Shown here one piece after another: positions 15,622 through 63,624 of a stretch of 64,000 bases of DNA; position 1 is the stretch's first letter; the number at the start of each line of letters is the position of its first letter. A program made the translations under genes and the position numbers. The notes under the pieces are model-generated. The model saw only the letters and a list, made by a program, of their open reading frames with translations, was not told the origin of the DNA and did not search any database. Origin of the DNA: an uncultured Myxococcales bacterium (GTDB lineage Bacteria; Myxococcota_A; Bradymonadia; UBA4248); the NCBI GenBank assembly GCA_964454015.1, contig CAYVQF010000021.1, forward strand, positions 13,890-77,889, read 5' to 3'.

Positions 15622-16839
15622 ATGGATCCGCACCCCAGCCACAATCCAGGCCCCAGCGCCGACGACGCGCGCCTCCAGGCCGACTTTGTCCGCCGCCCCG
15701 ACCTAGCGCCGGTGCCCCCTCCCCAAGCGGTCTCGACTTACGCCCAACGCCCGGCCTGCTGGGCCCACGTCTCCCAGGAGAATTGGTCCAAGTGGCGTTG
15801 GCAGATGCGGCACCGGGTACGCAGCGCCGCCGCCCTGGCGCCCATCCTCGACCTCAGCCCTGAGGACGAGGCCGCCATCACCTGGGCCGCGAGCCGCTTC
15901 CCCCTCTTGACCACACCCCACTACCTCGCCCTGGCCCAGGCCACGGCGCCGTGCGCCATCCGCGCGCAAATCCTCCCCTCTTGGTCCGAAGTCACCCATG
16001 GCCACGACGGGCTCTGGGATCCACTGGGTGAAGGGGCGCACGGCCTGCAACCAGGCTTGACCCAACGCTACCCCGACCGCGTACTCTTGGTGCTGCGCCA
16101 CAGTTGTGCCAGCCACTGCCGTCACTGCACCCGGCGCCGCAAAGTTGGCGACCCGAGCCAGGCCCCGACCCGCGCCGAGATCGAGGCGGCGCTCAACACC
16201 ATCGCCGCCACCCCCACCATCCGCGATGTCCTGGTCTCTGGCGGCGACCCCTTGTCCCTGTCGACGCGGCGCTTGGGCGCAGTGCTGTCGCGCCTGCGCG
16301 CCATCCCCCACCTCGACGTGATCCGCCTCTGTACGCGGATGCCCGTGACCCTACCCCAGCGCATCGACGCCGCGCTGTGTGAGTGTCTGCGGGCCCTGGG
16401 CCCCATCTACGTCAACACCCACTTCAACCACCCACAAGAGGCCAGCGTTGAGAGCGGCGCGGCTCTGCAGCGTCTCCGCCTGTCGGGCTGCATCCTGAAC
16501 AATCAGATGGTGCTCCTGCGCGGTGTGAACGACGACGCCGCCATCATCGAGTCCATGAACCGCTGGCTGTTGCGACACGGCTGTAGGCCCTACTACCTCT
16601 TTCAGGTGGACCGCGGCCAACATACAGGCCATTTTCGCTGCCCCCTCGCGGTCGGTCAGGGGATCCTGCGCCGTCTGCGCGGGCGCATGGGTGGCCTGGG
16701 AGTGCCACGCTTTGTGGTGGATTTGCCGGGAGGCTGGGGCAAGGCCTGTGCTGAGTTAGCCGAGGCGGCGCCCGGCGCTCGGGGCGTCCCATTGTTGTGG
16801 AGCTGGCGCGGCCTGTGGGTCCCTTACGAAGATCTTTGA
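15622..16839 (+). CDS. KamA-family radical SAM aminomutase (lysine 2,3-aminomutase-like)
   Basis: CxxxCxxC cluster CASHCRHCTRR. KamA-type N-terminal WSKWRWQMRHRV and TPHYLALA motifs. PLP/SAM region VLVSGGDPL. The 14758 ORF is an upstream frame read-through. Confidence 0.7.
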   Translation: MDPHPSHNPGPSADDARLQADFVRRPDLAPVPPPQAVSTYAQRPACWAHVSQENWSKWRWQMRHRVRSAAALAPILDLSPEDEAAITWAASRFPLLTTPHYLALAQATAPCAIRAQILPSWSEVTHGHDGLWDPLGEGAHGLQPGLTQRYPDRVLLVLRHSCASHCRHCTRRRKVGDPSQAPTRAEIEAALNTIAATPTIRDVLVSGGDPLSLSTRRLGAVLSRLRAIPHLDVIRLCTRMPVTLPQRIDAALCECLRALGPIYVNTHFNHPQEASVESGAALQRLRLSGCILNNQMVLLRGVNDDAAIIESMNRWLLRHGCRPYYLFQVDRGQHTGHFRCPLAVGQGILRRLRGRMGGLGVPRFVVDLPGGWGKACAELAEAAPGARGVPLLWSWRGLWVPYEDL

Positions 16840-16933
16840 AGGGCTCTGTCGCTGCCTCCTGGCTATCTATTAATAATAGGGTGCGCGTTAAAGGGGTTTG
16901 CGCGGTGATTTTTTCGGGTCTAGTTCTCCCTCG

Positions 16934-16963
16934 GCGATGACTTTGAGGTCATCGCTATTTTTT
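16934..16963 (+). terminator. Rho-independent terminator downstream of the kamA-like gene
   Basis: Perfect 8-bp stem GCGATGAC/GTCATCGC with a 6-nt loop, followed by TATTTTTT. Confidence 0.6.
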
Positions 16964-16964
16964 C

Positions 16965-16993
16965 TTGACACTTGTACTTGCACGGCCTATAAA
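16965..16993 (+). promoter_or_regulatory. Sigma70-like promoter P1 of the tRNA-tuf operon
   Basis: TTGACA (16965-16970), 17-nt spacer, TATAAA (16988-16993). Near-consensus in an otherwise GC-rich region. Confidence 0.55.
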
Positions 16994-17067
16994 ACGCAGC
17001 CTTACCGCAGCGCCTACGGCCTGTGGTGCCGTGGCTGGGAAACACGCTTTCCGCATGCTCATGTTCC

Positions 17068-17096
17068 TTGACAATAGAATCGAAATCGGTAATTTG
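17068..17096 (+). promoter_or_regulatory. Sigma70-like promoter P2 of the tRNA-tuf operon
   Basis: TTGACA (17068-17073), 16-17-nt spacer, TAATTT. About 15 nt upstream of the first tRNA. Confidence 0.4.
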
Positions 17097-17112
17097 GCGC
17101 CCGCGATCGGGC

Positions 17113-17185
17113 GCTGGTGTAGCTCAATTGGCAGAGCATCTGATTTGTAATCAGGAGGTTGGGGGTTCAAGTCCCTTCACCAGCA
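17113..17185 (+). tRNA. tRNA-Thr (anticodon TGT)
   Basis: Cloverleaf read manually. Acceptor GCTGGTG/CACCAGC, D-arm GCTC..GAGC, anticodon loop TTTGTAA, T-loop GGTTCAAGTCC. Confidence 0.8.
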
Positions 17186-17207
17186 TAGATCGTGGTCGTT
17201 TTTGCCT

Positions 17208-17289
17208 TGGAGGGGTGCCCGAGCGGTTAAAGGGGGCGGACTGTAAATCCGTTGGCAACGCCTACGAAGGTTCGAATCCTTCCCCCTCC
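17208..17289 (+). tRNA. tRNA-Tyr (anticodon GTA), long variable arm
   Basis: Acceptor GGAGGGG/CCCCTCC, anticodon loop CTGTAAA, long variable arm, T-loop GGTTCGAATCC. Confidence 0.8.
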
Positions 17290-17350
17290 ATTTTAAGATG
17301 ATGACGCGACGCGTGCATCGCCACGCGTCGCGGGATCATCTTTTGTTTAT

Positions 17351-17423
17351 GCGGGAGTAGCTCAGTTGGTAGAGCATCAGCCTTCCAAGCTGAGGGTCGC
17401 GGGTTCGAACCCCGTCTCCCGCT
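17351..17423 (+). tRNA. tRNA-Gly (anticodon TCC)
   Basis: Acceptor GCGGGAG/CTCCCGC, anticodon loop CTTCCAA, T-loop GGTTCGAACCC. Confidence 0.8.
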
Positions 17424-17478
17424 CTTCCACGACATCCGACGGGCGCTTGCAGAGCGCCATCGCCGTTTCGAGTGGGGT

Positions 17479-17551
<73 letters not shown>

Positions 17552-17730
17552 TGTGGGCGTCCTGGTGCATGGCATGCGTATCTTTTGCCGCAAACCGAGG
17601 GCGATCACGGCGTTTGTGCTCGACAGCAGGGGAGTGTGCTCCGGTTCCGGAGTGGTGCTTTTTTCGGTTTACTGTTAGTCTTTTTTGCGCTCCCACCCTC
17701 ATCCATTTGAATTGCGAAGGAGAAGCCGGC

Positions 17731-18921
17731 ATGGCCAAGGAGAAGTTTGAACGAAAGAAGCCCCACGTCAACGTGGGGACCATCGGCCACGTCGACCATG
17801 GGAAGACGACGTTGACCGCAGCCATCACCATGTATCTTAACAAGAAGTACTCTGGCGTTAAGATCATGAAGTTCGACGAAATCGACAAGGCGCCGGAAGA
17901 GAAAGAGCGTGGTATCACCATCGCGACGGCCCACGTCGAGTACGAAACGGCCAACCGTCACTATGCCCACGTCGACTGCCCCGGACACGCTGACTACGTG
18001 AAGAACATGATCACGGGTGCGGCGCAGATGGACGGCGCGATCCTCGTGGTGAGCGCGGCTGACGGCCCCATGCCGCAGACCCGCGAGCACATCCTCTTGG
18101 CCCGTCAGGTCGGTGTGCCTTACATCGTGGTCTACCTGAACAAAGCCGACATGGTGGATGACTCCGAGCTCTTGGAGTTGGTCGAGTTGGAAGTGCGCGA
18201 GCTGCTCTCCAGCTACGAGTTCCCTGGCGACGACATCCCTATCATCACCGGCAGCGCCCTGCAGGCGATGGAAGAGATCGACTCGCACCTGGGTACCCAG
18301 AGCATCGATCGCTTGATGGATGCCGTGGACTCCTATATCCCCACGCCTGAGCGTCAGGTCGACAAGCCCTTCTTGATGCCCGTCGAAGACGTCTTCACCA
18401 TCTCTGGTCGCGGCACCGTGGCCACGGGTCGTATCGAACGCGGTATGATCAAGGTCGGCGAGCCCGTCGAGATCGTGGGTCTGAAAGAGGCGGTGGACAA
18501 GAGCGTCGTCACGGGCGTTGAGATGTTCCGCAAGCTCCTCGACTTCGGTCAGGCTGGCGACAACGTCGGCTGCCTGCTCCGTGGTGTCAAGAAGGAAGAC
18601 ATCGAGCGCGGTCAAGTCTTGGCGAAACCGGGCAGCATCGCCCCGCACAAGACCTTCACCGCCGAGATTTACGTCCTGTCCAAGGCCGAAGGTGGGCGGC
18701 ACACGCCGTTCTTCAATGGCTACCGTCCGCAGTTCTACTTCCGTACCACCGACGTGACCGGCGTGGTGACCCTCGACAACGTCGAGATGGTGATGCCTGG
18801 TGACAACGTCTCGGTTCGGGTCGAGCTCATCACGCCCATCGCGATGGAACAAGGCTTGCGCTTCGCTATCCGCGAAGGTGGCCGTACCGTAGGCGCTGGG
18901 GTCGTTGCTGCCATTATCTAG
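17731..18921 (+). CDS. tuf: Elongation factor Tu
   Basis: [36 protein letters not shown] and NKAD GTPase motifs. Canonical RBS GAAGGAGAAG. The longer ORF upstream of the ATG overlaps the tRNA. Confidence 0.97.
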
Positions 18922-18965
18922 TTGTGTCTTGGGTCGTCGCGGCGTTCTGCGCCACGACGACCCCT

Positions 18966-19038
18966 AGGGGTGTAGCTCAGTTGGTAGAGCAACGGCCTCC
19001 AAAGCCGTGGGCCGGGGGTTCGAGTCCCTCCACCCCTG
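18966..19038 (+). tRNA. tRNA-Trp (anticodon CCA)
   Basis: Acceptor AGGGGTG/CACCCCT, anticodon loop CCTCCAAAG, T-loop GGTTCGAGTCC. Conserved position between tuf and secE. Confidence 0.8.
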
Positions 19039-19077
19039 TCTCGGCCATCTTTCTTGGCCGGAGATGAGGATTGCGCG

Positions 19078-19467
19078 ATGGATGACGTGGTTCGATGGGT
19101 CAATCTGTCGTTCGTGTTTGCTGGGATCATCTTGTGGTGGTTCTTTGCGCGCGTGAGCGAATCGGTGATGGCCTTGGTCAATGTGCCTGATAGCCAGGTT
19201 TTGGGAGAGCACCTGACGCAAGCCTCGCTCTTTGGCTTGGGTCTGGCCATTGTGGTCACCCTGGTCTTGTGGCGACACAAGCGTCTCTATGAAGGGGGGC
19301 TCAACGTCGCCCGCGAAGCCAAACGCGTCACTTGGCCCAACTACGCTGAGACGAAGTCTGCCACCAAGGTGGTGATCGTCACGACAGCGATCATCTCGCT
19401 GATTCTCTTTGCCTTCGACGCTGTTTTTCAACGTCTGACGGCCATGATTCTCGGCATCGACGGATAG
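19078..19467 (+). CDS. secE: Preprotein translocase subunit SecE (3-TM form)
   Basis: Three hydrophobic helices, with the conserved C-terminal SecE helix KVVIVTTAIISLILFAFD. Conserved position upstream of nusG. Start could instead be the TTG at 19054. Confidence 0.8.
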   Translation: MDDVVRWVNLSFVFAGIILWWFFARVSESVMALVNVPDSQVLGEHLTQASLFGLGLAIVVTLVLWRHKRLYEGGLNVAREAKRVTWPNYAETKSATKVVIVTTAIISLILFAFDAVFQRLTAMILGIDG

Positions 19468-19490
19468 CGACTGAGTGAAGGCGGCACCTC

Positions 19491-20021
19491 ATGAAGTGGT
19501 ACATCGTGAACGCCCACTCTGGGTTTGAGAACAAGGCCAAGATAGCCCTACAGGAGCGCATCGAGGCTTCCACTCTGAAGGATTTCTTCGGAGACATCCT
19601 CATCCCGGTCGAGACGGTGATCGAAAGCAAAAAAGGGGAGAAGCGCACCACGACGCGGAAGTTCTTCCCCGGTTACCTCCTCGTGCAGATGGAGCTCACC
19701 AACGAGACCTGGCACTTGGTGAAATCGACGCCGAAGATCACCGGCTTCGTTGGCGGCGGCACCACCCCACCGGCGATGCCCGATGCCGAAGTGCAGCGCA
19801 TCCTCGGCCAGATGAAGGAGTCCATCGACAAGCCGGATCTCCTGCAGAGCATCGAAGAGGGCGACAATGTCCGGGTGACGGACGGTCCCTTCTCGAACTT
19901 CACCGGCAGTATTGAACAAGTTGACCGCGACAAGGGGCGGGTTCGGGTTCTGGTCAGCATCTTCGGGCGAGTCGTGCCCGTGGAACTCGAGTTTGGCCAG
20001 GTAGAAAAAGTGAGCGCGTGA
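19491..20021 (+). CDS. nusG: Transcription termination/antitermination factor NusG
   Basis: MKWYIVNAHSGFENK (NGN domain) and a C-terminal KOW (GDNVRVTDGPFSNFTGSI). Confidence 0.95.
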   Translation: MKWYIVNAHSGFENKAKIALQERIEASTLKDFFGDILIPVETVIESKKGEKRTTTRKFFPGYLLVQMELTNETWHLVKSTPKITGFVGGGTTPPAMPDAEVQRILGQMKESIDKPDLLQSIEEGDNVRVTDGPFSNFTGSIEQVDRDKGRVRVLVSIFGRVVPVELEFGQVEKVSA

Positions 20022-20068
20022 TCGCGCTTGTGCGCACACCAGTGCCGAAACATTTGGATTGAAGTGTC

Positions 20069-20494
<426 letters not shown>

Positions 20495-20509
20495 CGGAGG
20501 GTCGGCGCG

Positions 20510-21208
20510 ATGCCATTCAGAGGAAAGAAATACAAGAACGTTTTCACAAAAGTCGATCGGCAGAAGCGTTACGACAGCGTCAGCGAAGCCATCAAACTGG
20601 TCAAAGCCACGAGCTATACCAAGTTTGACGGCTCCGTCGATGTGGCTGTGCGGCTCGGCGTTGATCCGCGGCATGCGGATCAAATGGTTCGTGGCGCGGT
20701 TGTACTGCCCAATGGTATTGGCAAGACCGTTCGCGTCATCGTTTTCGCCGCGGGCGAGAAAGAACGCGAGGCCCGCGAAGCTGGCGCTGATATCGTCGGC
20801 TCTGACGACCTCGTCGAAAAAATCCAAGGCGGCTGGCTCGACTTCGACAAAGCCATCGCCACCCCCGACATGATGGGGAAAGTGGGCAAGCTCGGCCGGG
20901 TCCTCGGTCCGCGTGGCTTGATGCCCAACCCCAAGGTCGGCACGGTGACCATGGATGTCACCAAGGCCGTTCGCGAGCTCAAGGCCGGTCGGGTCGAGTT
21001 CAAGGTCGATCGCGCTGGGATCATCCATGCCCCCATCGGCCGCGTCTCTTTTACGCCCGAGAGCCTCGAAGAGAACTACCAAGCCCTCATCGACATGTTG
21101 ATGCGACTCAAGCCGGCGGCCGCCAAAGGCCAATACGTCAGGTCCATCACCTTCAGCGCCACCATGGGTCCGGGCGTCAAGGTCGATCCGTCCGTAGCTG
21201 GCGTCTGA
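20510..21208 (+). CDS. rplA: 50S ribosomal protein L1
   Basis: L1 family sequence ([21 protein letters not shown]). Position follows rplK. Confidence 0.95.
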
Positions 21209-21500
21209 TCCTGTCACTTTGTTCCTTTCTTGGTTGACAAAGGGCCCATGAACGCGTAAACACGCCGGGCCTTTTGTCGGCGGCCCCTGCACCGTCGGAG
21301 AAGTCGGTTCCTCAACGCGAGGATTAATGCCCAACGGGCGCCGGCCGAGCCGGAAGCATGGCTGACCCGAAATGTGACTTGCCTCTTAAAGGGCATCCTC
21401 TTCGGTACAACCATCGGTTCGGAACCCACCCCACCCGGGGTTGGCCTCTCCCGCGAGAACTCGGGCGCTCTTTACCCGTTATCCGCAACCGAGGCTTGTC
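21209..21500 (+). promoter_or_regulatory. rplJ 5' leader (L10(L12) autoregulatory leader region), with a weak internal promoter-like TTGACA
   Basis: A 290-nt untranslated gap between rplA and rplJ. In bacteria this gap carries the L10 leader. TTGACA at 21234 has a weak -10 (TAAACA). Confidence 0.4.
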
Positions 21501-22019
21501 ATGAACCGAGATCAGAAACGTGCCGCCATCGACGAGATGCGGACGCTCTTCAGCGATATGGACGCCATCGTCCTGGCTGATACTTCCGGCGTCGATGTCA
21601 ACACCATCAATAAAGTCCGCAGCATCTTCCGCGCTGAGGGTGTGCACTTCCGCGTCGTGAAGAACACCTTGGCCAAGCTCGCCCTCCAAGGCACCGAGCT
21701 CGAAGGCATCGCCAGCGCTTTCGTGGGCCCAACGGCTATCGCCCTCAAAGCAGGCGACCCCATCACGCCCGCCAAGATCGCCATCGAATTCGCCAAGGAT
21801 AACCCCAAATTCGAGGTCAAAGGCGGTTACCTGCCCGGCAAAGTCCTCGATGCCCAGGGCGTCGTCGCCTTGTCGAAGATGAAAGGCCGCCAAGAAATGC
21901 GTGCTGAGCTCCTCAGCATCTTCAAGGCGCCGCAGACCCAGTTCGTGGGTGTGATGAACACCATGGTTACCCAGTTCCTGGGCGTCCTCAACGCCCGCGC
22001 CGATAAACTTGAAGGCTGA
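21501..22019 (+). CDS. rplJ: 50S ribosomal protein L10
   Basis: [40 protein letters not shown]. The ATG at 21501 is preferred over the upstream extension. Confidence 0.9.
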
Positions 22020-22090
22020 GTTTCCCTTGGCATTTTTTCCTGTACCCTGTTGCATGGCCCGTCAATACGACGGCACACTTGGAGAGCCCC

Positions 22091-22474
22091 ATGTCCATTA
22101 GTGAAGAACAAGTCATTGAGTACCTCGAAAACCTCAACATCGTCCAGCTCAACAACCTGGTGAAGACCCTCGAGAGCAAGTGGGACGTCAAGGCCGCCTC
22201 TGGTGGTGCCGTGATGATGGCTGCTGCCGCGCCTGCCGCTGAAGCCGCCGCCGAACCCACCGAGTTCAAGGTGGTCTTGGCCGGTGTTGGCGACAAGAAA
22301 ATCCAGGTGATCAAAGAGATCCGCGCCATCACCGGTCTCGGCCTCAAAGAAGCCAAAGACCTGGTCGACGGCGCACCCGGCATCATCAAGGAAGGCGTGT
22401 CCAAGGAAGAAGCTGCCGACATGAAGTCCAAGATCGAAGCCTCTGGTGCCACCGTGGAAATCAAGCCCATGTAG
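22091..22474 (+). CDS. rplL: 50S ribosomal protein L7/L12
   Basis: [33 protein letters not shown], Ala-rich hinge, C-terminal [40 protein letters not shown]. Confidence 0.95.
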
Positions 22475-22507
22475 GCCACCTGTCCGCTTGGTGTCTCGAG
22501 AGCGTCC

Positions 22508-23068
22508 GTGGGTCACCCCGGGCGCTCTTCGTCGTTGAATGCCCACGTGGACCACTGCCCCTCGAGCATAGCTTTGAGCGAAAGTATCCCTGCGCAGCAA
22601 GTCCTTCTCCGGCCCCTGGCGATCCGCGATCTCTCTGGCGTACAGGATCTCTTCCTCGCGCTGACGGCTTGCCAGAACGATGCCTTCTCCGCCCTCCAAG
22701 AGAACCCCGTGCGCGTGTCCTACGAGATGCGCCGCCTCAGGCAGAACCTGCTCGCCGAGCAGCGTTATCTCTGCTTCGTGGCTGAGCATGAGGGGCGCTT
22801 GGCGGGCTACGCTGCGGGCGTCGTCGAGGTGCAGGCACCAATTTTCAAAGTCGACACCTATTGCTCCATCAATGAGGTCTTCGTGCAGGCCTCCTATCGG
22901 CGCCGGGGGCTGGGTCGCGCCCTGGTGACGGAGGTCCTCGCCGCGGCCCAGGCGATGGGGATTGGGTGGGCCAATGTGCACCTGGTGGGTGACGCCAGAG
23001 CAGCCGAGCCTTTCTTCGCCTCCCTGGGCTTTCACGTGGGTGCTTTGGAGCTGCGCAGCGCGTTGTGA
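22508..23068 (+). CDS. GNAT-family N-acetyltransferase, inserted between rplL and rpoB
   Basis: Acetyl-CoA binding motif RRRGLGRALV (Q/RxxGxG/A) inside a GNAT-type fold region. GTG start at 22508. An in-frame ATG lies further in. Confidence 0.6.
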   Translation: MGHPGRSSSLNAHVDHCPSSIALSESIPAQQVLLRPLAIRDLSGVQDLFLALTACQNDAFSALQENPVRVSYEMRRLRQNLLAEQRYLCFVAEHEGRLAGYAAGVVEVQAPIFKVDTYCSINEVFVQASYRRRGLGRALVTEVLAAAQAMGIGWANVHLVGDARAAEPFFASLGFHVGALELRSAL

Positions 23069-23108
23069 TCCGGCCTATGCATGAAACTGGCCAATTTCAG
23101 GAATAAGA

Positions 23109-23137
23109 GTTGACATCCTTGTCGCAAGCCAGTAGAT
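23109..23137 (+). promoter_or_regulatory. Sigma70-like promoter upstream of rpoB
   Basis: TTGACA (23109-23114), 17-nt spacer, TAGATT (23132-23137). Followed by a roughly 420-nt untranslated leader before the rpoB ATG at 23558. Confidence 0.5.
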
Positions 23138-23557
23138 TCCCGCCGCCCTGGTTTTGCGCGTGCCTGGCGCTGGCTCAGGGTGGCGTGCGCATCGACGACG
23201 GTGGATGCATCCCGAGGCCCGCGGGCCCCTGGGAGCGCTTTTGCAGTGGCACAACATGAGACCCGGCGTCAGACGCGGTGACGCTTTGGGAGGAGATGGA
23301 ATGGGATGGGAAGACTGCAAAAGGACGAGCTGGCCCGTGAGCGCTTGCGTTGTGCACGAACCTCGCTTTTTTGGCATTCTACCTTCGCGATCCCGAAAAA
23401 ATATTTGCCTTCGCTGCGGCGGAGGCCTGTGAATGATGAACAGCGCACCCCATCGTCCATAGCCGCCTGAGGACGCTCGGGCTGCAGCCATGGTCTTGCT
23501 GTCCATGGCTGCCGACGATGAAACGGTTGGGAACTGACGCGATACCGAGGAGAGCAG

Positions 23558-27676
<4,119 letters not shown>

Positions 27677-27795
27677 GCCAACGTGCCCGGTGCGCCCCCG
27701 AGGGGTGGCACCGGCGGCGCAACGGTCAAGAGAGCATCGAGCGTTAACCCATTGTGTAGATCATCGCCTGCGGGCGTTGGGTCGAGAGGTCGAAA

Positions 27796-31902
<4,107 letters not shown>

Positions 31903-33398: not shown

Positions 33399-35846
33399 AT
33401 GAAGCACTGGAATCAGCGTGGCCTGGCCTCGAGCCCTTGGCTCCTCTTCTCTCTCTTCGCTCTGGCATCCTTGAGCGCCGCCTGCGGTGCCGATCGCCAA
33501 GGCCCCAGTCCCAAGATCGAACGGGTCGAGCCCAACGTCATCCACACGGCCAACCAAGACGCCACGGTGACCCTCATCGGCACGGGCTTCTCCCCTGCCA
33601 TCGAAGGGGCCCTCGACGACCCCCGCGTGATGATGCCCAAGATCGAGCTCATCGGCCAAGACGGCACGGTCTACCACATCGATCAGGCCAACGTCTCCTT
33701 CCCCGCCGACGACATCTCAGGCACACGCCTCGTGGTCACCGTGCCGGCCCAGCTCGTCCCACCGCGCGCCCTGGGCGAACCCGACGCCATCTACGACCTC
33801 AAGGTGATCAACCCCGATGGCTCGAGCCACACCCTGACCGCTGCCATCACCGTACGCGCACCCTCGTTCTTCGCCATCACCTCCATCGACCCACCTTTCG
33901 CTTGCACCTGCGCCGATCAGCTCGTCACCATCGTCTCCGACGGTGCTTTCGTGTCCACCCCCGTCGTAGGCGTGCGCCCTGCCGACCAGAGCGATCTCAA
34001 CGATCTCTCCTTCCTGCAGCGCGTGGCCTTCGTCGACGCCAACACCCTCACGGCCGTCGTGCCGGCAGGGCTCCCGTTGGGCACCTACGATCTCGTGGTC
34101 ATCAATCCAGAGAGTGACGGCCGCATCGGCCTCCTCGAGGATTCCCTCCGCATCGTCCGCTTCCCCATCCCGCGCATCGTCCACATCCTCCCTGGGCGCG
34201 GCACCACCCAGGTCAACACCGGCTTGACCATCTTCGGGCGCGACTTCCGCGGCCCGGCGCGGGTCGAGCTCCTCAACCCATCCATGACGGTGGTCGAGTC
34301 CCTGACCCCGGCCCGGGTCACGGCGGAACAGATCGATGTCCAAGTCCCCACCACCCGCATGAGCGTCGGGCCCTACCTGGTGCGCGTCGTCAATGAAGAC
34401 GAAGAGACCTACTATTCTTACGCCAGCTTCCTCGTCACCAACCCGGCTGGCAACCTCAACACCTTCGAGCAAGACAGCCCCACGGTCATCGGGCGGCGCA
34501 TGGTCGCCGGCACCTCCGTCGCCGACGATCTGGGCAACCGCTATATCGTGGCCATCGGGGGCGACACGGGCCAGAACGGTGAGGTGCTCGACACCATCGA
34601 AAGGGCCCAACTCTCCAAGTTCGGCGCCCTGAGCGCCTGGCAAGTGCAGCGCAACACCCTCACGGTGCCGCGCCGCGGCGCATCGGCCGTGGCGCTGCCC
34701 CTCTTCAACCCTGCCTACTCCCCATATATCCCCGAAAAGACTTACGTCTATGTCGTCGGCGGTCGCGACGCCAGCGGCAACGTCCTGAACACGGTCGAAC
34801 GCGCCGTCGTGCTGAGCTCGACCGAAGCGCCAACCTTGCAAGCCGAACCCGCCGCGAGCGCGGGCAGCCTCGCTGCCGGCACCTGGTACTACAAAGTCTC
34901 GGCGGTCCTCGCCGCGGACGACGCCGATAACCCGGGCGGCGAGACCCTCCCCTCAGACGAGGCGATCATCCGCACCGGCGCGAACGGCGCCGTCACCTTG
35001 TCCTGGGCGCCCGTAACGGTGCGTGGAAGCGCCGCCGTGGCCTACCGGATTTACCGCAGCCCCGAAGTCGACGGTCGCTCCCAAGACGAACGCTTCCTCG
35101 CCGAGGTGACCACGACGTCCTACACCGACGACGGCTCACAGTCCACCACCGACGCGGCGCCGCACTTTCCCGGTGCCACTGGCGTCTTCCACGAGATCAA
35201 CCGCCGCATGACCATGCCGCGCTGGGGCCACCACGCGCTCCTCGTCCAAGGCGACGACGGCAACCGCCACTTGGCCGCCGTCGCCGGCAGCGCCGGCCAA
35301 GTGGTGCTCGACACCATCGAGTTCGCCGCTTTCGACGTCGACGGCAACCTGGGTGGCTTCAACCCATCGGCAGAAGTGTTGGCCGTCGGCCGGGTCTTTC
35401 CCGCGGCCGTGGTGCAGACCAAGGCCAACGTCGCCACTTACGACCAGAACGGCTCGCGCTTGTGGCTCGCCGGTGGCTACACCTCGACCGCCGCCACGGA
35501 CACCATCGAGTGGGCCGATTTCGGCACCAGCCTCGGTGCTTGGGAAACCCTCGGCAAGAAGGTGCTGGCCCGCGGCGGCTCCATGGCGGTCATCACCAAC
35601 CAGAAAGCCTTTTTCTTGGGCGGCGCCGGTGGCACCCCTGAGGCGCCGACGGCAGTGCGCACCGATGGGCGCGACTCCCAGTTCGACGGCGTAGGGATGC
35701 TCTCGGGCGCCGTCAACTCGACCGCCAGCTCTCTCCTCAGCCCGCGCGCCTTCGGGGTGGCCATCACGGGCGCCGGCTTCATCTACTTCGTCGGCGGCAC
35801 ATCCAACGGCGTCGACGCGGCCAACGCAGTGGAGCGCACCTTCTAG
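33399..35846 (+). CDS. Secreted lipoprotein with IPT/TIG-like and Kelch-type beta-propeller repeats
   Basis: Lipobox LSAAC. Repeated ...VVGG/AIGG... blades (YVYVVGGRDASGN, RYIVAIGGDTGQNG, FIYFVGGTSNG) typical of Kelch propellers. The N-terminal Ig-like segments are Thr/Val-rich. Confidence 0.5.
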   Translation: MKHWNQRGLASSPWLLFSLFALASLSAACGADRQGPSPKIERVEPNVIHTANQDATVTLIGTGFSPAIEGALDDPRVMMPKIELIGQDGTVYHIDQANVSFPADDISGTRLVVTVPAQLVPPRALGEPDAIYDLKVINPDGSSHTLTAAITVRAPSFFAITSIDPPFACTCADQLVTIVSDGAFVSTPVVGVRPADQSDLNDLSFLQRVAFVDANTLTAVVPAGLPLGTYDLVVINPESDGRIGLLEDSLRIVRFPIPRIVHILPGRGTTQVNTGLTIFGRDFRGPARVELLNPSMTVVESLTPARVTAEQIDVQVPTTRMSVGPYLVRVVNEDEETYYSYASFLVTNPAGNLNTFEQDSPTVIGRRMVAGTSVADDLGNRYIVAIGGDTGQNGEVLDTIERAQLSKFGALSAWQVQRNTLTVPRRGASAVALPLFNPAYSPYIPEKTYVYVVGGRDASGNVLNTVERAVVLSSTEAPTLQAEPAASAGSLAAGTWYYKVSAVLAADDADNPGGETLPSDEAIIRTGANGAVTLSWAPVTVRGSAAVAYRIYRSPEVDGRSQDERFLAEVTTTSYTDDGSQSTTDAAPHFPGATGVFHEINRRMTMPRWGHHALLVQGDDGNRHLAAVAGSAGQVVLDTIEFAAFDVDGNLGGFNPSAEVLAVGRVFPAAVVQTKANVATYDQNGSRLWLAGGYTSTAATDTIEWADFGTSLGAWETLGKKVLARGGSMAVITNQKAFFLGGAGGTPEAPTAVRTDGRDSQFDGVGMLSGAVNSTASSLLSPRAFGVAITGAGFIYFVGGTSNGVDAANAVERTF

Positions 35847-35996
35847 CTCGGTCGCTGCGCAGCCGAGTAGCCGCCTGGCCGCTGGGGCGCTCGCGCCATC
35901 GTCGTTGACAGCCAAGCTGGCATTGGGCATGGTCGCCCACAGCGATGCCAGCCGACTTCACACAGACGATCGGTTGAGAGAGGGTGGCGCAACAAC

Positions 35997-38900
35997 GTGA
36001 TGGGCGACGGAATTTTCCTCAACGATCGTTACCGTATGGGTGACCTCCTGGGTGAGGGCGGCATGGGCCGTGTCTTCCGGGCTCAGGATCTCCGTCTCCA
36101 GCGCGACGTGGCGATCAAGTTCTTGCCACGCATCGACAAGGCGAGCATGGTCGAGCGCTTTCGCGCCGAAGCCATGGCCGTGGCCCGTCTGAATCACCCC
36201 AACATCGTGACGGTCTTCGACTACGATTACCTAGAGGGCAACCACGCGGCCCTGAGCGCTCTGGGTCTGTCGCAGAACCCGCCCTGCCTCCCCGGGGACG
36301 ATCTCGCTGGCGAGCTCCAGCGTGGCCAACCTTTCATCGTCATGGAGTATCTGCCGGGGAAGAGCATCCGCGAGGCCGAGCTCAGCGACGCCGTGGCCAT
36401 CCTCGACGTGGGGCTCGCCCTGTGCGACGCCCTCGACTACGCTCACCGCGAAGGGATCGTGCACCGCGACGTCAAGCCCGACAACATCCGCATCACCGAC
36501 GATGGGCGGGTGAAGCTCCTCGATTTTGGCATCGCCTCCTTCTGCCACCGGCGGCGGATCACCCTGGACGGCGAGGTCCTGGGCTCTCTGGTCTATATGT
36601 CACCCGAGCAGGCCCTGAGTGAGCCCATCGACGCCCGCTCGGACATCTACGCCCTGGGTCTGGTCCTGTACGAGTTGCTGGCAGGGCGGCTGCCCTTCGA
36701 TGTCTCCAGCCCCATGCGCTCCTTGGAGCAACGCACCTCGGGGACCTTGCCCGGCCTGCGCAAGTTTTGCCCCAAGCTGCCCCTGGCGTTGGAGCAGGTC
36801 TTGGCGCGGGCCTTGGCGCGCCAGCCCGAGGGGCGCTACGCGACAGCGAGCGACTTTGGCCAAGCCCTCCGCGAAGTGCGCGACGCCATGGCCCAGAGCA
36901 TGGCCAACGCCACGACCTTCGGCCGCTATGAGCTGATCAAGCTCTTGGCCGTTGGCGGCATGGGGGAGATCTACCTGGCCCGCGTCAAGGGCCCCGCCAA
37001 CTTTGAGAAGCGCTGCGTCATCAAGAAAATCCTGCCGCATCTGGCCACCGAAGAGGAGTTCGTCACCAAGTTCATCGACGAAGCCAACACGGTGGTTCAG
37101 CTCACCCACGGCAACATCGTGCCGGTCTTCGACATGGGTGAGCACCAGGGGGAATACTTCATCGCCATGGACTACATCCCTGGCGTCAACCTGCGCACCC
37201 TGCTCAAGGCCCGGGCGCAGCGCCAGAGTCCTCTGCCGGTGGCCATGTGCATCCACCTCCTCTGTGAGGTGTGTAAGGGTCTGAGCTACGCCCACCGCAA
37301 ATGCGGCACCGACGGTCAAGCCCTGGGGATCATCCACCGCGACATCAGCCCCTCGAACATCTTGGTCTCTCTCGAAGGAGAAGTGCGGCTCGTCGACTTT
37401 GGCATCGCCAAAGCGACCTCGCGGATCACCCGCAGCGTGACGGGTCGCCTGCAGGGCAAGTTCGGCTACATGAGCCCTGAGCAAGCCAGTGGCGCCCCCC
37501 TCGATCTGCGCTCGGACATCTTCTCGGCTGGCGTCGTTCTCTACGAATGCCTGACCGGCGCCCGTCCTTTCGAAGGGGAGTCAGACCTGGCCTCCCTCGA
37601 GGCCGTCAAGAGTCACGAGGCGGCGGCACCCAGCACGTTGCGCCCAGGGATCGCCAAGGAGCTCGACCAGATCGTCGCCAAAGCGCTGGCCAAGAAGCCA
37701 GCGGATCGTTTCGCCAATGCCGACGACTTCCTCGACGCGTTGCTGAAGTTTTTGGTGACCACGGGCCAACATGTGACGCCGCAGGACCTGGCCAAAGAGG
37801 TCGCCGCCGACATGGACGGCGGCGACGACGCCATGGGCGGCGCTGCCTGCCTCGACGCCTTGCTCGGGCAGGAGGTTGACAGGCTCATCGCCGCAGAGCG
37901 GCGCCAGAGCGCGCAGACGCTGACGGCAACGGCCGACTCGAACCGCACGAACGACGGCGCCGCGCTCCTCGCCCCGCTCAGCGAAGAGGACACGGCGACC
38001 CTCTCGTCACCGGGGCAGACCCCTACGGCGCCACCACGCGATGAGCCTAGCCCTGCCCCCAAGCGCCAGGGCTCGCGTCGGTGGCGGTGGTTGGCGGCCC
38101 TGCTGCTCGTGGGGCTGGTGCTCTTCCTCGGGCAACAGTGGCTGGCCCAACGCAGCGGTCAAGCGCCTCAGCAGATCACGCCTGCGGCGGCGGCCGCCGC
38201 TGCGGCGCCGGAGGTGGATCCAGAAGAAGCCGACGTGGAGCCACCCCAGGTCCCGGCCCAGACTGAACCCGTCGCGCGCTGGCACAGCTTCGACTTCGTC
38301 ACCAGCCCGGAAGAAGCGCTGATGGTCGTCCAATCGGGGCTCGCCGATGTGGACCACAGCGCCGATCTGGTGCGCCTCAACACGAGTCGCCAGGCGTCGC
38401 TGACCTTCTCCGCCGAGGGATATGCGGCCTGCACGCTGGACTTGCAACTCGCGCCCCTGATGGGCGAGCCCGTGCAGGTGCCCGTCCTGCACGCCAAAGG
38501 CTGTCTCAGCGCCTATATCGCCGGGGGATCCCCCCTGCCCGATGGCACACTGAGCATCGCCGTGCAGCTCGCCAAGCTGGACGTGGTGGTCGAGGTTGCG
38601 CCGCCCGACAGCGGCGAGGGCAGCGTTGCCAATGGTTCTTCCCGCAGGGATGGCAACGGCAAGCGGCCCAAGGAGGGGGAGCGCAGCCCGCGGGCGCTGG
38701 CCGTGACGGTGCGCTCCAACGTCGAGGCGACGGTCAGCCTCGGTGATCGCAGTGGTGCGGCGCCCTTCACGGCGCAGGTCAACCGCGGCCAGGACGCCGT
38801 GCAGATCAAAGTGACGCCGCGCGGGCTGGGGCTGCCTTGGCAGCGCAGCTTCGATCCGGCGAGCGTAGAGCGCGGCTTGGAGCAGACGGAGATGGAGGCG

Positions 38901-39161
38901 CGTTTCTGCCCGGTGGTGGTACACGTGGTGGAGCCGCGCATCCCCGACGATCCAGCGCCTTATGGCGTGGCAGACGTCTACGTGGGTGAGGCGTTGATCG
39001 CGCGCGGGGTTTCGCGGGCTTCCTTCGTGGTGCCCTGTGGGCGGCACAAGGTCAGCTTGCGCTATCGCGGCGACGACGTGGAGTTGCAGGGCGAAGCGTT
39101 GGTGGACGCCAGCAGCGACAAAGCAGCCAGCGCCTCGATCGCCATGCAGCGGGTCCGATAA
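35997..39161 (+). CDS. Membrane Ser/Thr protein kinase with two tandem kinase domains and C-terminal PEGA-like extracytoplasmic region
   Basis: Domain 1 has GEGGMGRVF, VAIKFL, HRDVKPDN and DFG. Domain 2 has GGMGEIYLA, VIKKIL, HRDISPSN and DFG. A TM helix WRWLAALLLVGLVLFLG follows, and the C-terminus carries a PEGA-like VYVGEALIARGVSRASFVVPCGRHKVSLRY. Confidence 0.8.
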   Translation: MMGDGIFLNDRYRMGDLLGEGGMGRVFRAQDLRLQRDVAIKFLPRIDKASMVERFRAEAMAVARLNHPNIVTVFDYDYLEGNHAALSALGLSQNPPCLPGDDLAGELQRGQPFIVMEYLPGKSIREAELSDAVAILDVGLALCDALDYAHREGIVHRDVKPDNIRITDDGRVKLLDFGIASFCHRRRITLDGEVLGSLVYMSPEQALSEPIDARSDIYALGLVLYELLAGRLPFDVSSPMRSLEQRTSGTLPGLRKFCPKLPLALEQVLARALARQPEGRYATASDFGQALREVRDAMAQSMANATTFGRYELIKLLAVGGMGEIYLARVKGPANFEKRCVIKKILPHLATEEEFVTKFIDEANTVVQLTHGNIVPVFDMGEHQGEYFIAMDYIPGVNLRTLLKARAQRQSPLPVAMCIHLLCEVCKGLSYAHRKCGTDGQALGIIHRDISPSNILVSLEGEVRLVDFGIAKATSRITRSVTGRLQGKFGYMSPEQASGAPLDLRSDIFSAGVVLYECLTGARPFEGESDLASLEAVKSHEAAAPSTLRPGIAKELDQIVAKALAKKPADRFANADDFLDALLKFLVTTGQHVTPQDLAKEVAADMDGGDDAMGGAACLDALLGQEVDRLIAAERRQSAQTLTATADSNRTNDGAALLAPLSEEDTATLSSPGQTPTAPPRDEPSPAPKRQGSRRWRWLAALLLVGLVLFLGQQWLAQRSGQAPQQITPAAAAAAAAPEVDPEEADVEPPQVPAQTEPVARWHSFDFVTSPEEALMVVQSGLADVDHSADLVRLNTSRQASLTFSAEGYAACTLDLQLAPLMGEPVQVPVLHAKGCLSAYIAGGSPLPDGTLSIAVQLAKLDVVVEVAPPDSGEGSVANGSSRRDGNGKRPKEGERSPRALAVTVRSNVEATVSLGDRSGAAPFTAQVNRGQDAVQIKVTPRGLGLPWQRSFDPASVERGLEQTEMEARFCPVVVHVVEPRIPDDPAPYGVADVYVGEALIARGVSRASFVVPCGRHKVSLRYRGDDVELQGEALVDASSDKAASASIAMQRVR

Positions 39162-39498
39162 AAACGGACCGAGGGGTGGAATAAGAAAATTGCCGCTGGA
39201 CTTATGTCGTAACGTGCGCAAATTGCCTGCCGGTTCAGCCGACGGGTCAGGCGATGGGTGGCTGCCAGACGTCGATGTAGGTGTTAATCGCCTATTCAAC
39301 ACGTCACCATCTTGCCAAGGCCAGAGAGATGGTTAAGATGTCGGGCGAAGTGGCTGACCACTTTGTGAGTGTATTGCGATCGTCCTTTGAGGCGCTGTTG
39401 ACGTGGTATGTGCGACGGCGTTTTTTGTTCCGAGACCAACGGCTCGCGGTCTAAACAGCGAAATGGGCGGGCCTTTTCTTATGCCAAGGAGAAACGTG

Positions 39499-40104
39499 AT
39501 GAAGAAAGTTGCATTGGTAGTGGCGCTTGTTCTCGGTTTTGCGGTGGTGGGCGCGGGTACGGCATCTGCGAAAGACATGAGCGGTCGTTTGGGCGTCGGC
39601 GCCGATTCTACGCTGGGCTGGGGCTACGTGGCCCAGGATTCCGCGATGGGTCCGATGAATCAGGGCCTGTCCATCGTCTACCAGGTTTCGAAAATGTTCG
39701 GCCTCCAGCTCATCGCCTCGGTGGGTTTCGGCATGGCCTCTGACGACGACGTCGACTACTCGGCCAATTACTGGGGCGTCTCGGTGCGCGGCCTGGTGCC
39801 CATCGCTTTCACCAACGACGTGAACCTCAACGCGGTGGTGGGTTTCAGTGTGGCCGGCTCGGGTTGGGCCATGGAATCTGAGGCCGGTGATGTGGACGGC
39901 TCTAAGACCCACATTTGGTTCGACCTCGGTCTCCGCCCCGAGTGGTTCATCACGGATCACTTCAGCATCCACACCCAGGTCGGCGTGGCCATCTCGCTGT
40001 TGAATGAAGACAACATCGGCCTCGAGGATGGCTCTGGCGTGTCCTTCAACATCTTTGGCAACCCGCACCTCCTTGGCAACGCCGGCTTCACCTTCTACTT
40101 CTGA
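39499..40104 (+). CDS. Outer-membrane beta-barrel protein (OmpW/OmpA-like small barrel)
   Basis: Signal peptide MKKVALVVALVLGFAVVGAGTASA. Alternating amphipathic beta-strands. C-terminal aromatic FTFYF. Good RBS AAGGAGAAACGTG. Confidence 0.6.
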   Translation: MKKVALVVALVLGFAVVGAGTASAKDMSGRLGVGADSTLGWGYVAQDSAMGPMNQGLSIVYQVSKMFGLQLIASVGFGMASDDDVDYSANYWGVSVRGLVPIAFTNDVNLNAVVGFSVAGSGWAMESEAGDVDGSKTHIWFDLGLRPEWFITDHFSIHTQVGVAISLLNEDNIGLEDGSGVSFNIFGNPHLLGNAGFTFYF

Positions 40105-40370
40105 GCCGCACGCGCTACGTGAGTCGCCGTCAGTGACGGCGTGAGCAAAGGCCGATGACTGCGTCATCGGCCTTTGCTCTTTGCTGTGACGAGTGGTCGC
40201 GAGATGCTGACGTAGTCTGCGTGGAATTGTCGGCCCGACTTGTGCTAAGGATGAATAGTGGCGTGCCGTACCGACGTCTCTGACCGCAACCGGTGGTGGC
40301 TTCGGCCGACACGCCCCCATTTTCCCGCACCCTAGGTCTCGAGGGACCCACGCCGCCGCGGAGTACCATC

Positions 40371-42344
40371 ATGCGCGCACTGTCCACGCCCCCCCCAGTC
40401 CCCCCTAGACCACGCTTCAACCTGCTGTGGCTACTCATCATCCTTGGGGTTTACGCGTTGTTTTCCGCTTCCGGATGCCGCATGCTGGATCGGCTGATGG
40501 GCAACACCGGCGCCCCGTGCAGCACGGACGACAACTGCGCCACGGGCTTGGTGTGTCTGACCGAGTTCCCAGGGGGCTACTGCTCCATGCAGACCTGCTC
40601 CCAGGGTGGCTGCCCTGGCATGTATGCCACCTGTGCCATGTTGGATGCTTCCCGCAATGTCACGGCGTGCGTGGAGGGGTGCAACTCCAACATCGACTGC
40701 AGGCAGGGCGAAGGCTACGTCTGCGCCGATCTCGACGGGTCGCGCGGCTGTATGCCGGCGCAGCAATCCACGGGTAGTGCCGGCGAGATCGGCTCGAGCT
40801 GCACCCGTGACAGCGATTGTTCAGGCGACCTGACCTGCCTCACGAACTTCGTCTTTGGCTATTGCTCCCGCGCCTGCTCCAGCCACAACGACTGCGGTAG
40901 CGACGGCCGCTGCATCAACCAGGGTGGCGATGTGATGCGCTGTATGCGGGCGTGCCAGAACAACAGCCAGTGCCGCTTCTCCTATGCCTGCCAGCAGGTG
41001 GACGGGCAGAATGTGTGTGATGCCGATGATTCGTCTACAGCGGTACGCAACCCCAACGGCACCCCGGACGGCCAGGGCTGTACGGTGGACGTGGCCTGTG
41101 TGGGCGGTACCTGCATCACCGGGACGGACTTCCCCGGCGGTTATTGTACGACCCGCAGTTGCGACGTCGTGGGCTGCTCCGACGCCAACTCGGTCTGCGT
41201 CGGTTTGGAACGCGAGGCGCTGTGCTTCGTTCGCTGTGAAGATAGCGCACAGTGTCGTGAGGGCTACCGCTGCACCTCACTGGATACGGGCGAGAAGGTG
41301 TGCTACGCCCTGTCCCCGATCCGGGCACCGGAGATCGAGGGCGGGGCTATCGAGATCCGCTGTGATGCCACCTCGTCCGGGCGGGTGCGCACGGCGACCT
41401 TCGAGTTGCCGGCAGGGAGCGTGGGCTTTGCCATCGTGCCCTTCAGCCCCGCCAACAGCGAGGTGACCCCGCTGCGCCTGCGCGCGCCCGACGGTTCGGT
41501 GCTCAACTTTGCTCAAGACTATAGTTTCCAGACGATCAACTCGCTGCTCTTGGGGACCATCGTCCCGATGTCATTCCCGGGCGCACCGGCCTTCGAACGC
41601 TTCATCCAGGCGGGTACCTATCGCTTCGAATACGAGACGGATGACGCCAGCTCTTGCTACTTCGTGGTGCCCCAGGCTTCCGTGGGTCGGCAGCTCGATC
41701 TGAACTTCTACTTCGTCGGCGTTCCTGGCCTCAACGCGGGCAACGCGGCGAGCCACACCCAGTTCCAAGCGACCATGCAGGAGGTGCGGACCATTTTCAA
41801 CAACGCGTCCATCACGATCGGCACGGTGCGGACCTTCGACATCAGCGGCGACAACGCCACCCGCTACAGCATGATCCGGGATTTCAGCGACATTTACCGT
41901 CTCCTCGCCCTGAGCAGCGCCCCGGGCCCGAGCCGCGATGAAGCGCTGAGTCTCAATGTCTTTCTCATCAACGATTTCAACATCGCCGGCCTGCCTGGTC
42001 TCTTGGGTTTGTCAGCAGGGATCCCTGGGGTACCGGGCGTCCATGGCAATGGCGGCGCCGGACTGGTTTTCAGCAGCGTCAACTTGCGCGATGCCCCCAC
42101 CGCCCTGGGACAGACCTTGGCACACGAGGCGGGTCACTTCTTGGGCCTGCGGCACACGAGCGAGCGCGGCGGCACGGAGTTCGATCCTTTGGATGACACG
42201 CCGCGCTGCAACAACCCGGAGAACCCCTACTCCTGCCCCGACGTGAACAACTTGATGTTCCCCTTCAGCGTCGACGTCGAGCAGCGTCAGATCACGACCA
42301 ACCAACGTTTCGTCATTCAGCGCAACCCACTGGTCAAGCCTTAG
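40371..42344 (+). CDS. Lipoprotein metzincin metalloprotease with about seven N-terminal myxococcus-type cysteine-rich repeats
   Basis: Lipobox LFSASGC. Repeats follow the pattern C-x-DxDC-x-G-x-C...(F)PGGYC...C. The C-terminus has HEAGHFLGLRH (HExxHxxGxxH zinc site). Confidence 0.75.
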   Translation: MRALSTPPPVPPRPRFNLLWLLIILGVYALFSASGCRMLDRLMGNTGAPCSTDDNCATGLVCLTEFPGGYCSMQTCSQGGCPGMYATCAMLDASRNVTACVEGCNSNIDCRQGEGYVCADLDGSRGCMPAQQSTGSAGEIGSSCTRDSDCSGDLTCLTNFVFGYCSRACSSHNDCGSDGRCINQGGDVMRCMRACQNNSQCRFSYACQQVDGQNVCDADDSSTAVRNPNGTPDGQGCTVDVACVGGTCITGTDFPGGYCTTRSCDVVGCSDANSVCVGLEREALCFVRCEDSAQCREGYRCTSLDTGEKVCYALSPIRAPEIEGGAIEIRCDATSSGRVRTATFELPAGSVGFAIVPFSPANSEVTPLRLRAPDGSVLNFAQDYSFQTINSLLLGTIVPMSFPGAPAFERFIQAGTYRFEYETDDASSCYFVVPQASVGRQLDLNFYFVGVPGLNAGNAASHTQFQATMQEVRTIFNNASITIGTVRTFDISGDNATRYSMIRDFSDIYRLLALSSAPGPSRDEALSLNVFLINDFNIAGLPGLLGLSAGIPGVPGVHGNGGAGLVFSSVNLRDAPTALGQTLAHEAGHFLGLRHTSERGGTEFDPLDDTPRCNNPENPYSCPDVNNLMFPFSVDVEQRQITTNQRFVIQRNPLVKP

Positions 42345-63509: not shown

Positions 63510-63624
63510 GCCGGAGTATCAGCCTCGAGGCCATCGGCCCCGGCAAAACCGGTGCATTGTCTGTTTTGCCACGGGAAACGCAATGTCTATTTTCCCCTCT
63601 GTTGCGAAAAATCAGCCTCGCCGC

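Follow-up and report, generated by a model that had tools for sequence, protein, structure and literature searches.

A membrane receptor with two kinase domains in one chain from a Myxococcota/Bradymonadia-like bacterium, read as a fusion of two kinase lineages

The gene at 35997..39161 on the forward strand of a 64,000-nucleotide (nt) stretch of DNA from an uncultured Myxococcales bacterium (GenBank contig CAYVQF010000021.1; the whole stretch is referred to as the window) is a genuine membrane receptor gene of a Myxococcota/Bradymonadia-like bacterium, and its 1054-amino-acid (aa) product, the query, carries two kinase domains in one chain, termed D1 and D2 for the first and the second, ahead of a single transmembrane (TM) helix and an extracytoplasmic region. 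Comparison with related proteins indicates that the query is a fusion of two kinase lineages and not an internal duplication, and confidence in the architecture together with this fusion origin is high. For the working relationship of the two domains, the favoured explanation, adopted tentatively and just short of an even chance, is that D2 is the primary receptor kinase and D1 a tethered partner kinase. Descriptions of bacterial Hanks-type kinases nearly always give one kinase domain per protein, and the query is a clean natural fusion whose D1-less counterparts are still recognisable by their shared gene neighbourhood.

The open reading frame (ORF) runs uninterrupted in one frame from a GTG at 35997, with a Pfam Pkinase domain in each half, which bears out the two kinase domains that a preliminary description of this DNA had claimed. 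A Shine-Dalgarno-like purine run, GAGAGAGGGTGG, can be read directly at 35977..35988 (+), 9-12 nt 5' of GTG 35997/ATG 36000; the database entry P0001, a 100% identical protein, starts at ATG 36000 and has 1053 aa. The same description had raised the possibility of a frameshift or assembly error, by which two adjacent ordinary kinase genes would have been merged. Adjacent kinase genes do occur in other phyla, as multi-gene matches in Actinomycetota and Acidobacteriota, and nothing else speaks for such an artefact. Against it, the ENA contig L001, an independent MEGAHIT assembly, retains ORF 35997-39161 at 99.979% identity over 4792 nt with one mismatch, the protein is recorded on 4 contigs (NCBI, JGI and ENA sources), and the frame is continuous through the D1-D2 junction, with neither a stop codon nor a frame change. 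Two diverged orthologues share the continuous two-kinase ORF as well: P0002 (1089 aa, from a Myxococcota metagenome-assembled genome (MAG)) is 45% identical to the query across 99% of its length with the same domain order end to end, and in P0003 (902 aa) one ORF encodes the two kinase domains, the TM helix and module A, the first of the ectodomain, with modules B and C absent. Since the independent contig carries the same ORF and a 45%-identical orthologue has the same architecture, and with P0003 in agreement, the artefact was rejected as having practically no chance of being correct.

D1 (36030..36890, +; aa 12-298) is a canonical Lys-loop RD kinase by Pfam, by alignment to PknB and by its motifs. 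It belongs to Pfam Pkinase PF00069 (E 6.3e-38 over aa 12-280, 131.1 bits with a cut-off of 31.7), its best solved-structure match is PknB, aligned over the full kinase domain at E 5e-51, and all of its motifs are canonical, namely GEGGMG, VAIK (K41), the alphaC E58, HRDVKPDN, DFG and SPE, with the activation-loop T189 aligned to T171 of Mycobacterium tuberculosis PknB. In the alignment, D1 residues 7-77 correspond to PknB 11-83 and residues 111-291 to PknB 92-278, and the gap between the two blocks is an insertion between beta4 and beta5 (36228..36326, +; aa ~78-110), which bears out the insertion of about 30 aa proposed earlier. The strands flanking it were found by AlphaFold2 (AF2) at 73-80 (beta4) and 110-117 (beta5), with predicted local distance difference test (pLDDT) values of 54-60 in between and below 50 at residues 99-105, and the insertion is predicted to be partly disordered. 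Comparable insertions are present in P0002, P0162 and P0251, and the feature is a marker of the D1 lineage. D1 is followed by a very short inter-kinase linker (36891..36926, +; aa ~299-310), assigned from AF2 secondary structure and the continuous frame; the last D1 helix (284-303) leads almost straight into beta1 of D2 (311-319), with a spacing of ~10 residues.

D2 (36927..37766, +; aa 311-590), delimited by the same three kinds of evidence, is a Ser-loop RD kinase. Its catalytic triad and its match to PF00069 (E 8e-37, aa ~311-573, 127.5 bits) place it in the Pkinase family, and PknB is once more the best solved-structure match, over the full kinase domain (E 6e-46). Its motifs are AVGGMG, with the first Gly changed to Ala, CVIK (K343), E362, HRDISPSN, D449, N454, DFG (D467) and SPE; it carries an 8-aa insert, KCGTDGQA, and its activation loop, SRITRSVTGRLQGKFGYMSPE, is near-invariant. 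The full canonical Hanks motif set is thus missed by D2 at two places, the catalytic-loop Lys, which is Ser, and the Gly-loop, which reads AVGGMG and not GxGxxG. The first of these had been overlooked in the preliminary description, which credited both domains with the Gly-loop, the VAIK Lys, the HRD catalytic loop and DFG; the statement holds for the fully canonical D1 and for the Lys/Asp/Asp triad in both domains. By sequence, a pseudokinase has lost the VAIK Lys, the HRD Asp or the DFG Asp, as defined in passages of the bacterial Ser/Thr kinase (bSTK) atlas (bioRxiv 10.1101/2025.01.12.632604), and neither D1 nor D2 is one, all three residues being kept in both. The Lys-to-Ser change in D2 is not decay, because Ser also fills this place in 119 of the 140 kinase domains of the homologue set; the catalytic-loop Ser is a conserved trait of the lineage of D2.

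Inside the coding region of the D2 N-lobe, sigma-70-like promoter matches stand at 37003-37030 and 37129-37158 (+), and a transcript from these internal sites would be without the D2 Gly-loop. Over the 3.9-kb region, 3 sigma-70-like sites were observed with 0.3 expected from shuffles, with no evident function; the frequency of terminator-like sites in a scan of the region was not above that of shuffles.

C-terminal to D2 lies a cytoplasmic juxtamembrane linker (37767..38081, +; aa 591-695, ~105 aa) rich in Thr, Ser, Pro and acidic residues; the analogy of PrkC/StkP (as treated in parts of PMC12636448 and PMC12077195) makes it a candidate phospho-acceptor region. Hydropathy places the TM helix at 38082..38147 (+; aa 696-717), the only segment with a 19-residue Kyte-Doolittle mean above 1.6 (2.02), in agreement with the one helix described before. 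Because the helix is preceded by KRQGSRRWRW, the positive-inside rule puts the kinases in the cytoplasm and aa 718-1054 outside. The outer part begins with an Ala/Pro/Glu-rich stalk (38148..38270, +; aa 718-758), which is not conserved in the alignment, and continues with three modules.

Module A (38271..38591, +; aa 759-865) is a PEGA-like beta-sandwich with the Cys pair C812/C836, its AF2 strands lying at model residues 4-100 (pLDDT mostly 82-90), and it scored 95% in hhalign against a PEGA profile built from 261 PEGA domains of single-kinase relatives. A disordered, charged linker (38592..38690, +; aa 866-898; pLDDT below 50 at model residues 105-137), whose length differs among homologues, leads to module B (38691..38882, +; aa 899-962), a small beta-sandwich with strands at model residues 142-194 (pLDDT 85-91) that reached only 47% against the PEGA profile. 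Module C (38883..39158, +; aa 963-1054) is again PEGA-like (92%; strands at model residues 205-291, pLDDT 78-95), with the Cys pair C971/C1014, the motif PYxVADxYV...PCGxHK and invariant F/C/D/P/A/P/C columns. When 8 ectodomains drawn from the full-length search were aligned, the three modules and the variable charged linker were found throughout, and the Cys residues of both pairs were invariant; C812-C836 and C971-C1014 are predicted disulfides, and the two invariant pairs fit an ectodomain in an oxidising compartment.

The gathering score of Pfam PEGA PF08308 was not reached, and aa 609-1054 (446 aa) had no Pfam match at all, even at E<=1. Fold and profile similarity assign the ectodomain to the PEGA/transthyretin-like (prealbumin-like) beta-sandwich superfamily, in connection with which the N-terminal extension of SusC and pilin domains of the CnaB type have also been named. 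The C-terminal PEGA-type region of the preliminary description was therefore right at the level of fold and superfamily, and has to be amended in that it lies below the Pfam family threshold and consists of three modules, not of one terminal domain. This divergent three-module ectodomain is shared with P0002 and with the single-kinase proteins P0008/10/14/17/18/34/77.

The two kinase domains are 35% identical to each other. In a neighbour-joining tree of kinase domains rooted on PknB, D1 of the query, D1 of P0002 and the kinase+AAA_16 proteins P0162 and P0251 formed a clade with a bootstrap value of 1.0, D2 fell within the single-kinase Ser-loop receptor kinases, to which it is up to 72% identical, and a clade of D1 with D2 received a support of 0. 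An exhaustive search with D1 by itself returned P0162 and P0251 as the best single-domain relatives, at about 53-56% identity; both consist of Pkinase and AAA_16, a soluble architecture, and the comparable beta4-beta5 insertion is joined in both by the activation-loop Thr of D1. Because D1 groups with the AAA_16 kinases and D2 with the receptor kinases, with zero support for D1 together with D2, the protein is read as a fusion of two lineages, and the choice posed earlier between recent duplicates and distinct lineages falls to the latter.

Among the D2 relatives are P0006, P0013, P0027 and P0088, Ser-loop receptor kinases from Bradymonadia/Myxococcota that have a single kinase domain and a PEGA or CarboxypepD_reg ectodomain, P0088 being recorded as 'PEGA domain-containing protein [Lujinxingia sediminis]'. 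They are 63-72% identical to D2, have an HRD[IV]SPSN loop and share the layout of kinase, linker, TM helix and beta-sandwich; unlike the query, they have one kinase, and most have PEGA domains detectable by Pfam. From taxon, architecture and the PF13620/PF08308 matches of relatives, these proteins are probably the 'Myxo2' family, which in the part of the bSTK atlas concerned is described as a single-kinase family with a carboxypeptidase-regulatory-like domain, as is Myxo1 with TPR. With the kinase+AAA_16 (STAND-type) proteins P0162 and P0251, the query has the D1-type kinase domain alone in common; it has no AAA_16 and does not belong to this group, a receptor kinase standing C-terminal to D1 instead. 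The architecture of P0162 and P0251 resembles that of M. tuberculosis PknK.

The gene neighbourhood adds to the picture of the fusion. The single-kinase D2 relatives P0013, P0027 and P0006 adjoin homologues of the outer membrane protein (OMP)-like gene of the window (39-57% identity), and P0013 and P0006 also adjoin homologues of its M43-protease gene (57-68% identity; loci L165 and L167), with gene orientation varying between loci L165, L166 and L167 and the window. Because of these adjoining homologues, P0013, P0027 and P0006 look like positional counterparts of the query gene without D1. A split version, with a D1-like gene adjoining the single-kinase relatives, was found in none of four loci, and the P0002 and P0003 loci had no neighbours in common with the window.

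Regarding mechanism, D2 is taken to be the ligand-controlled receptor kinase because its position and sequence match those of the single-kinase receptors. The relatives of D1 are presumably controlled by a C-terminal STAND module, D1 standing in the same N-terminal position. In the proposed scheme, the ectodomain would respond to an envelope or extracellular cue, and the receptor would dimerise and autophosphorylate, at T478/S480/T482 in the activation loop of D2 and in the juxtamembrane linker with its many Thr; D2 would then switch the tethered D1 on or off via phosphorylation or proximity, and D1, once switched, would phosphorylate substrates of its own. The overall arrangement would be a hard-wired two-tier kinase cascade, in which a receptor kinase replaces the STAND regulatory module of the D1 relatives. 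Mutual phosphorylation of D1 and D2 is plausible because both are RD kinases with activation-loop Thr/Ser. The coupling from D2 to D1, taken on its own, is a possibility rated somewhat below even. A precedent exists in the same phylum, where the membrane kinase Pkn8 of Myxococcus xanthus phosphorylates the soluble kinase Pkn14 (PMC6213207) and so offers a membrane kinase-to-soluble kinase model for D2 and D1; Pkn8 and Pkn14 are separate proteins, unlike the query, and the likeness is functional, with no orthology claimed.

Conservation is unequal along the protein. To P0002 and P0003, respectively, D2 is 69% and 63% identical, D1 52% and 35%, and the juxtamembrane linker 31% and 21%. In D1 of P0002 every catalytic residue and the activation-loop Thr are intact, as in the query. 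D1 of P0003 reads GSEANS at the Gly-loop and HLD for HRD, so that the Gly-rich loop and the Arg are lost, and its activation-loop Thr is gone too; the Lys/Asp/Asp triad is kept, and this domain is probably not a normal enzyme. Because D2 is more constrained, with a near-invariant activation loop, and D1 of P0003 is degenerate, the comparison points to D2 as the indispensable element and to D1 as an accessory one.

These observations also feed the main rival explanation, in which D1 is mainly a non-catalytic allosteric regulator of D2, comparable to JAK JH2-JH1, the eukaryotic tandem kinase-fold pair, and would keep D2 inhibited or active through direct contact, phosphotransfer by D1 itself being dispensable; it is rated as rather unlikely, though the strongest of the alternatives. 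Such a role would suit a D1 that evolves much faster than D2, the losses in P0003 next to a near-invariant D2 and the ~10-residue linker that forces the domains into proximity, and regulatory pseudokinase partners are documented in eukaryotes and catalogued in bacteria (in parts of PMC6170490 and PMC8761531). However, the query and P0002 have every catalytic and regulatory residue of D1, the RD motif and the activation-loop Thr among them, which is unexpected if catalysis is irrelevant; the triad survives even in P0003; and no defined interface was given by AF2, with a predicted template modelling score (pTM) of 0.53.

Several points weigh against the favoured explanation of D2 as primary receptor kinase with D1 as tethered partner. 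Having lost the Lys of its catalytic loop, D2 might be a weak enzyme, and P0003 suggests that some members do without D1 catalysis, a point in favour of D1 as a scaffold or allosteric element. The arguments from evolutionary rate are thin, as the family has three known members. On the side of origin, the three D2 domains (of the query, P0002 and P0003) formed no exclusive clade (support 0.01), and D1 may have been gained once and later lost or may have moved between lineages. The AF2 model of aa 1-610 gave confident domains (pLDDT 83.5) with no confident D1-D2 packing (pTM 0.53); on geometric grounds, a linker of ~10 residues would make a back-to-back N-lobe dimer of the PknB kind unlikely inside one chain. 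A scan of the neighbours and larger ORFs turned up neither FHA nor PP2C genes nor an obvious substrate gene.

The lack of confident interdomain packing would also agree with two independent kinases without cross-talk, the fusion giving D1 only a membrane location or co-expression. Both lineages function alone elsewhere, and no conserved split gene pair points to an earlier coupling. Independence is nevertheless thought improbable, as the minimal-linker fusion has been kept between proteins 45% identical overall and a separate Myxococcota family pairs a Ser-loop with a Lys-loop kinase too, in 13 clusters and in the reverse order, suggesting that the pairing is selected. Members of that family of dual-kinase+TPR proteins, for example P0082 ('protein kinase [Myxococcales bacterium]'), P0095 and P0019, have one Ser-loop and one Lys-loop kinase like the query and differ from it in that the Ser-loop kinase comes first, a spacer of ~100 aa separates the kinases, TPRs follow at the C-terminus and a PEGA-like ectodomain is lacking. 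Their second kinase forms a clade separate from D1.

A wider proposal may be drawn from the two families, namely that Myxococcota Ser-loop kinases (HRDxSPxN) are intrinsically weak or non-canonical and serve in the main as the receptor or activator of a canonical Lys-loop kinase, Ser-loop and Lys-loop fusions being an obligate heterotypic pair; at present it is a long shot. If it were true, the repeated independent fusion of Ser-loop and Lys-loop kinases in both orders, in the query family and in the dual-kinase+TPR family, would mark that obligate pair, and a bacterial, independently evolved counterpart of the eukaryotic pseudokinase-kinase modules (JAK, plant tandem kinases) would be at hand. 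The query offers an experimental system in which bacterial kinase-to-kinase relays can be set against eukaryote-like regulatory pairs and the effect of the Lys-to-Ser change can be followed.

The last alternative is a decoy or immune sensor in the manner of plant tandem-kinase proteins or anti-phage kinases, one domain being the bait for an effector. The plant proteins, as described in portions of PMC6170490 and PMC8761531, act in this way and have two kinase folds per chain, one of them degenerate in some members, as D1 is in P0003, and PADLOC gave the query strong matches to the PD-T4-6, mad6 and PglW kinase models. These matches are generic, however, as an unrelated pseudokinase of the window also scores E 3e-42, and in NCBIfam the query reached 292 for MAD6 with a cut-off of 460 and 132 for PglW with a cut-off of 990, placing it outside the anti-phage kinase systems PD-T4-6, MADS MAD6 and BREX PglW. 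The three immediate neighbours scanned had no defence-family match, the region is otherwise a housekeeping one (dnaX, tuf, rpoB, rpoC, IleRS and ValRS), and a TM receptor with a periplasmic sensor is unlike the cytoplasmic decoys. Unlike the eukaryotic tandem kinases in general, the query has an independent origin, both triads intact and its kinases N-terminal to a membrane anchor; there is no evidence of effector sensing by the query, and a decoy role is considered very improbable.

In its general plan, the query is like the PknB/PASTA receptor kinases, in which a kinase is likewise followed by a juxtamembrane linker, a single TM helix and sensor modules repeated outside the cell. Unlike PknB, which has a single kinase domain, it has no PASTA domains by Pfam and stands outside the PknB/Stk1 PASTA family. 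The NCBIfam model PknB_PASTA_kin NF033483 nonetheless gave 554 bits with a cut-off of 450, in a match that covers profile positions 3-275 of 563; the cut-off was passed because the scores of the two kinase domains add up. Summed two-kinase scores can thus exceed an 'equivalog' threshold, and automated annotation could misname tandem kinases. In practice this yields a better rule for annotation, a modest gain.

The statement in the preliminary description that tandem-kinase architectures are rare in bacteria proved too strong. The best 120 full-length homologues include 18 with two kinase domains, in the order Ser-loop to Lys-loop in 13, Lys-loop to Ser-loop in 3 (the query family), Ser-Ser in 1 and another in 1. 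At the top of a search of 50%-identity representatives with D1, at least two kinase units were present in 123 of 148 clusters (116 with two, 7 with three or four; mostly Lys-Lys), a set ranked by summed score and therefore enriched for multi-kinase proteins, from which no frequency can be derived. The spacing of catalytic loops in those clusters has a median of 306 aa, compared with 291 aa in the query, and the domains likewise abut. The partner domains of the two-kinase proteins are TPR, PEGA, PD40 and TCAD2, and their named sources are Myxococcota/Myxococcales and Thermoanaerobaculia MAGs.

The exact combination of the query turned up in P0001, P0002 and P0003 alone, three clusters at 90% identity. 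A scan of 185,579 species-representative genomes gave no tandem orthologue; of the 80 loci kept, one had a doubtful two-loop ORF, and the long matches from Actinomycetota and Acidobacteriota were not single two-kinase ORFs and presumably are adjacent kinase genes. The scan of JGI metagenomes with D1 returned generic kinases alone, at no more than 42% identity. Term searches of the main text of the bSTK atlas, which covers ~300,000 bacterial STKs (bioRxiv 10.1101/2025.01.12.632604), gave no mention of tandem or two-kinase proteins, and no two-kinase proteins are mentioned in two surveys of myxobacterial signalling. The two-kinase architecture is thus plentiful in uncultured bacteria yet essentially undescribed, and the combination seen in the query is rare.

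Very large proteins, between 1,600 and 7,200 aa long and with three to four kinase domains each (P0121, P0123, P0158 and P0204), also occur among the representative matches. Another match, P0126, is a two-kinase protein with a TCAD2 (ternary-complex-associated) domain. TCAD2 is linked to conflict systems, which would make P0126 a candidate defence-type tandem kinase, with no relation to the query family.

The kinase gene is immediately preceded, on the same strand, by a gene at 33399-35846 (+) for a secreted protein of 815 aa with weak matches to IPT/TIG and Kelch; it showed no synteny with the gene upstream of P0002 (best E 0.028). Downstream follow the gene for the OMP-like small beta-barrel protein (39403..40104, +), recognised by a signal peptide, a C-terminal Phe and a weak LamB match, and that for a Cys-rich secreted M43/reprolysin-like metalloprotease (40293..42344, +; Pfam Peptidase_M43, E 6.6e-6). 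A functional link of these two genes to the receptor kinases is inferred, and the kinase-OMP-M43 group in Bradymonadia-like contigs may be a conserved envelope-related neighbourhood.

Further along the window, the pseudokinase and PEGA-domain genes noted before at 62100-64000 were recovered. The ORF at 62100-63509 (-; 469 aa) is a pseudokinase by the definition given above, with VVIR for VAIK, DYG for DFG and an HRQISPHT loop in which Asn has become Thr; the loop resembles that of the Ser-loop lineage, and a C-terminal region of ~170 aa follows the kinase fold. Immediately upstream of it, a partial ORF (63628-63999, -) that runs off the window end matched the lineage PEGA profile at E 3e-5 (17 bits) and is plausibly the PEGA-domain gene. 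The guanine-cytosine content is 0.59-0.62 over 16001-30000 of the window, the tuf/rpoB/rpoC segment, compared with 0.64-0.69 elsewhere in the window.

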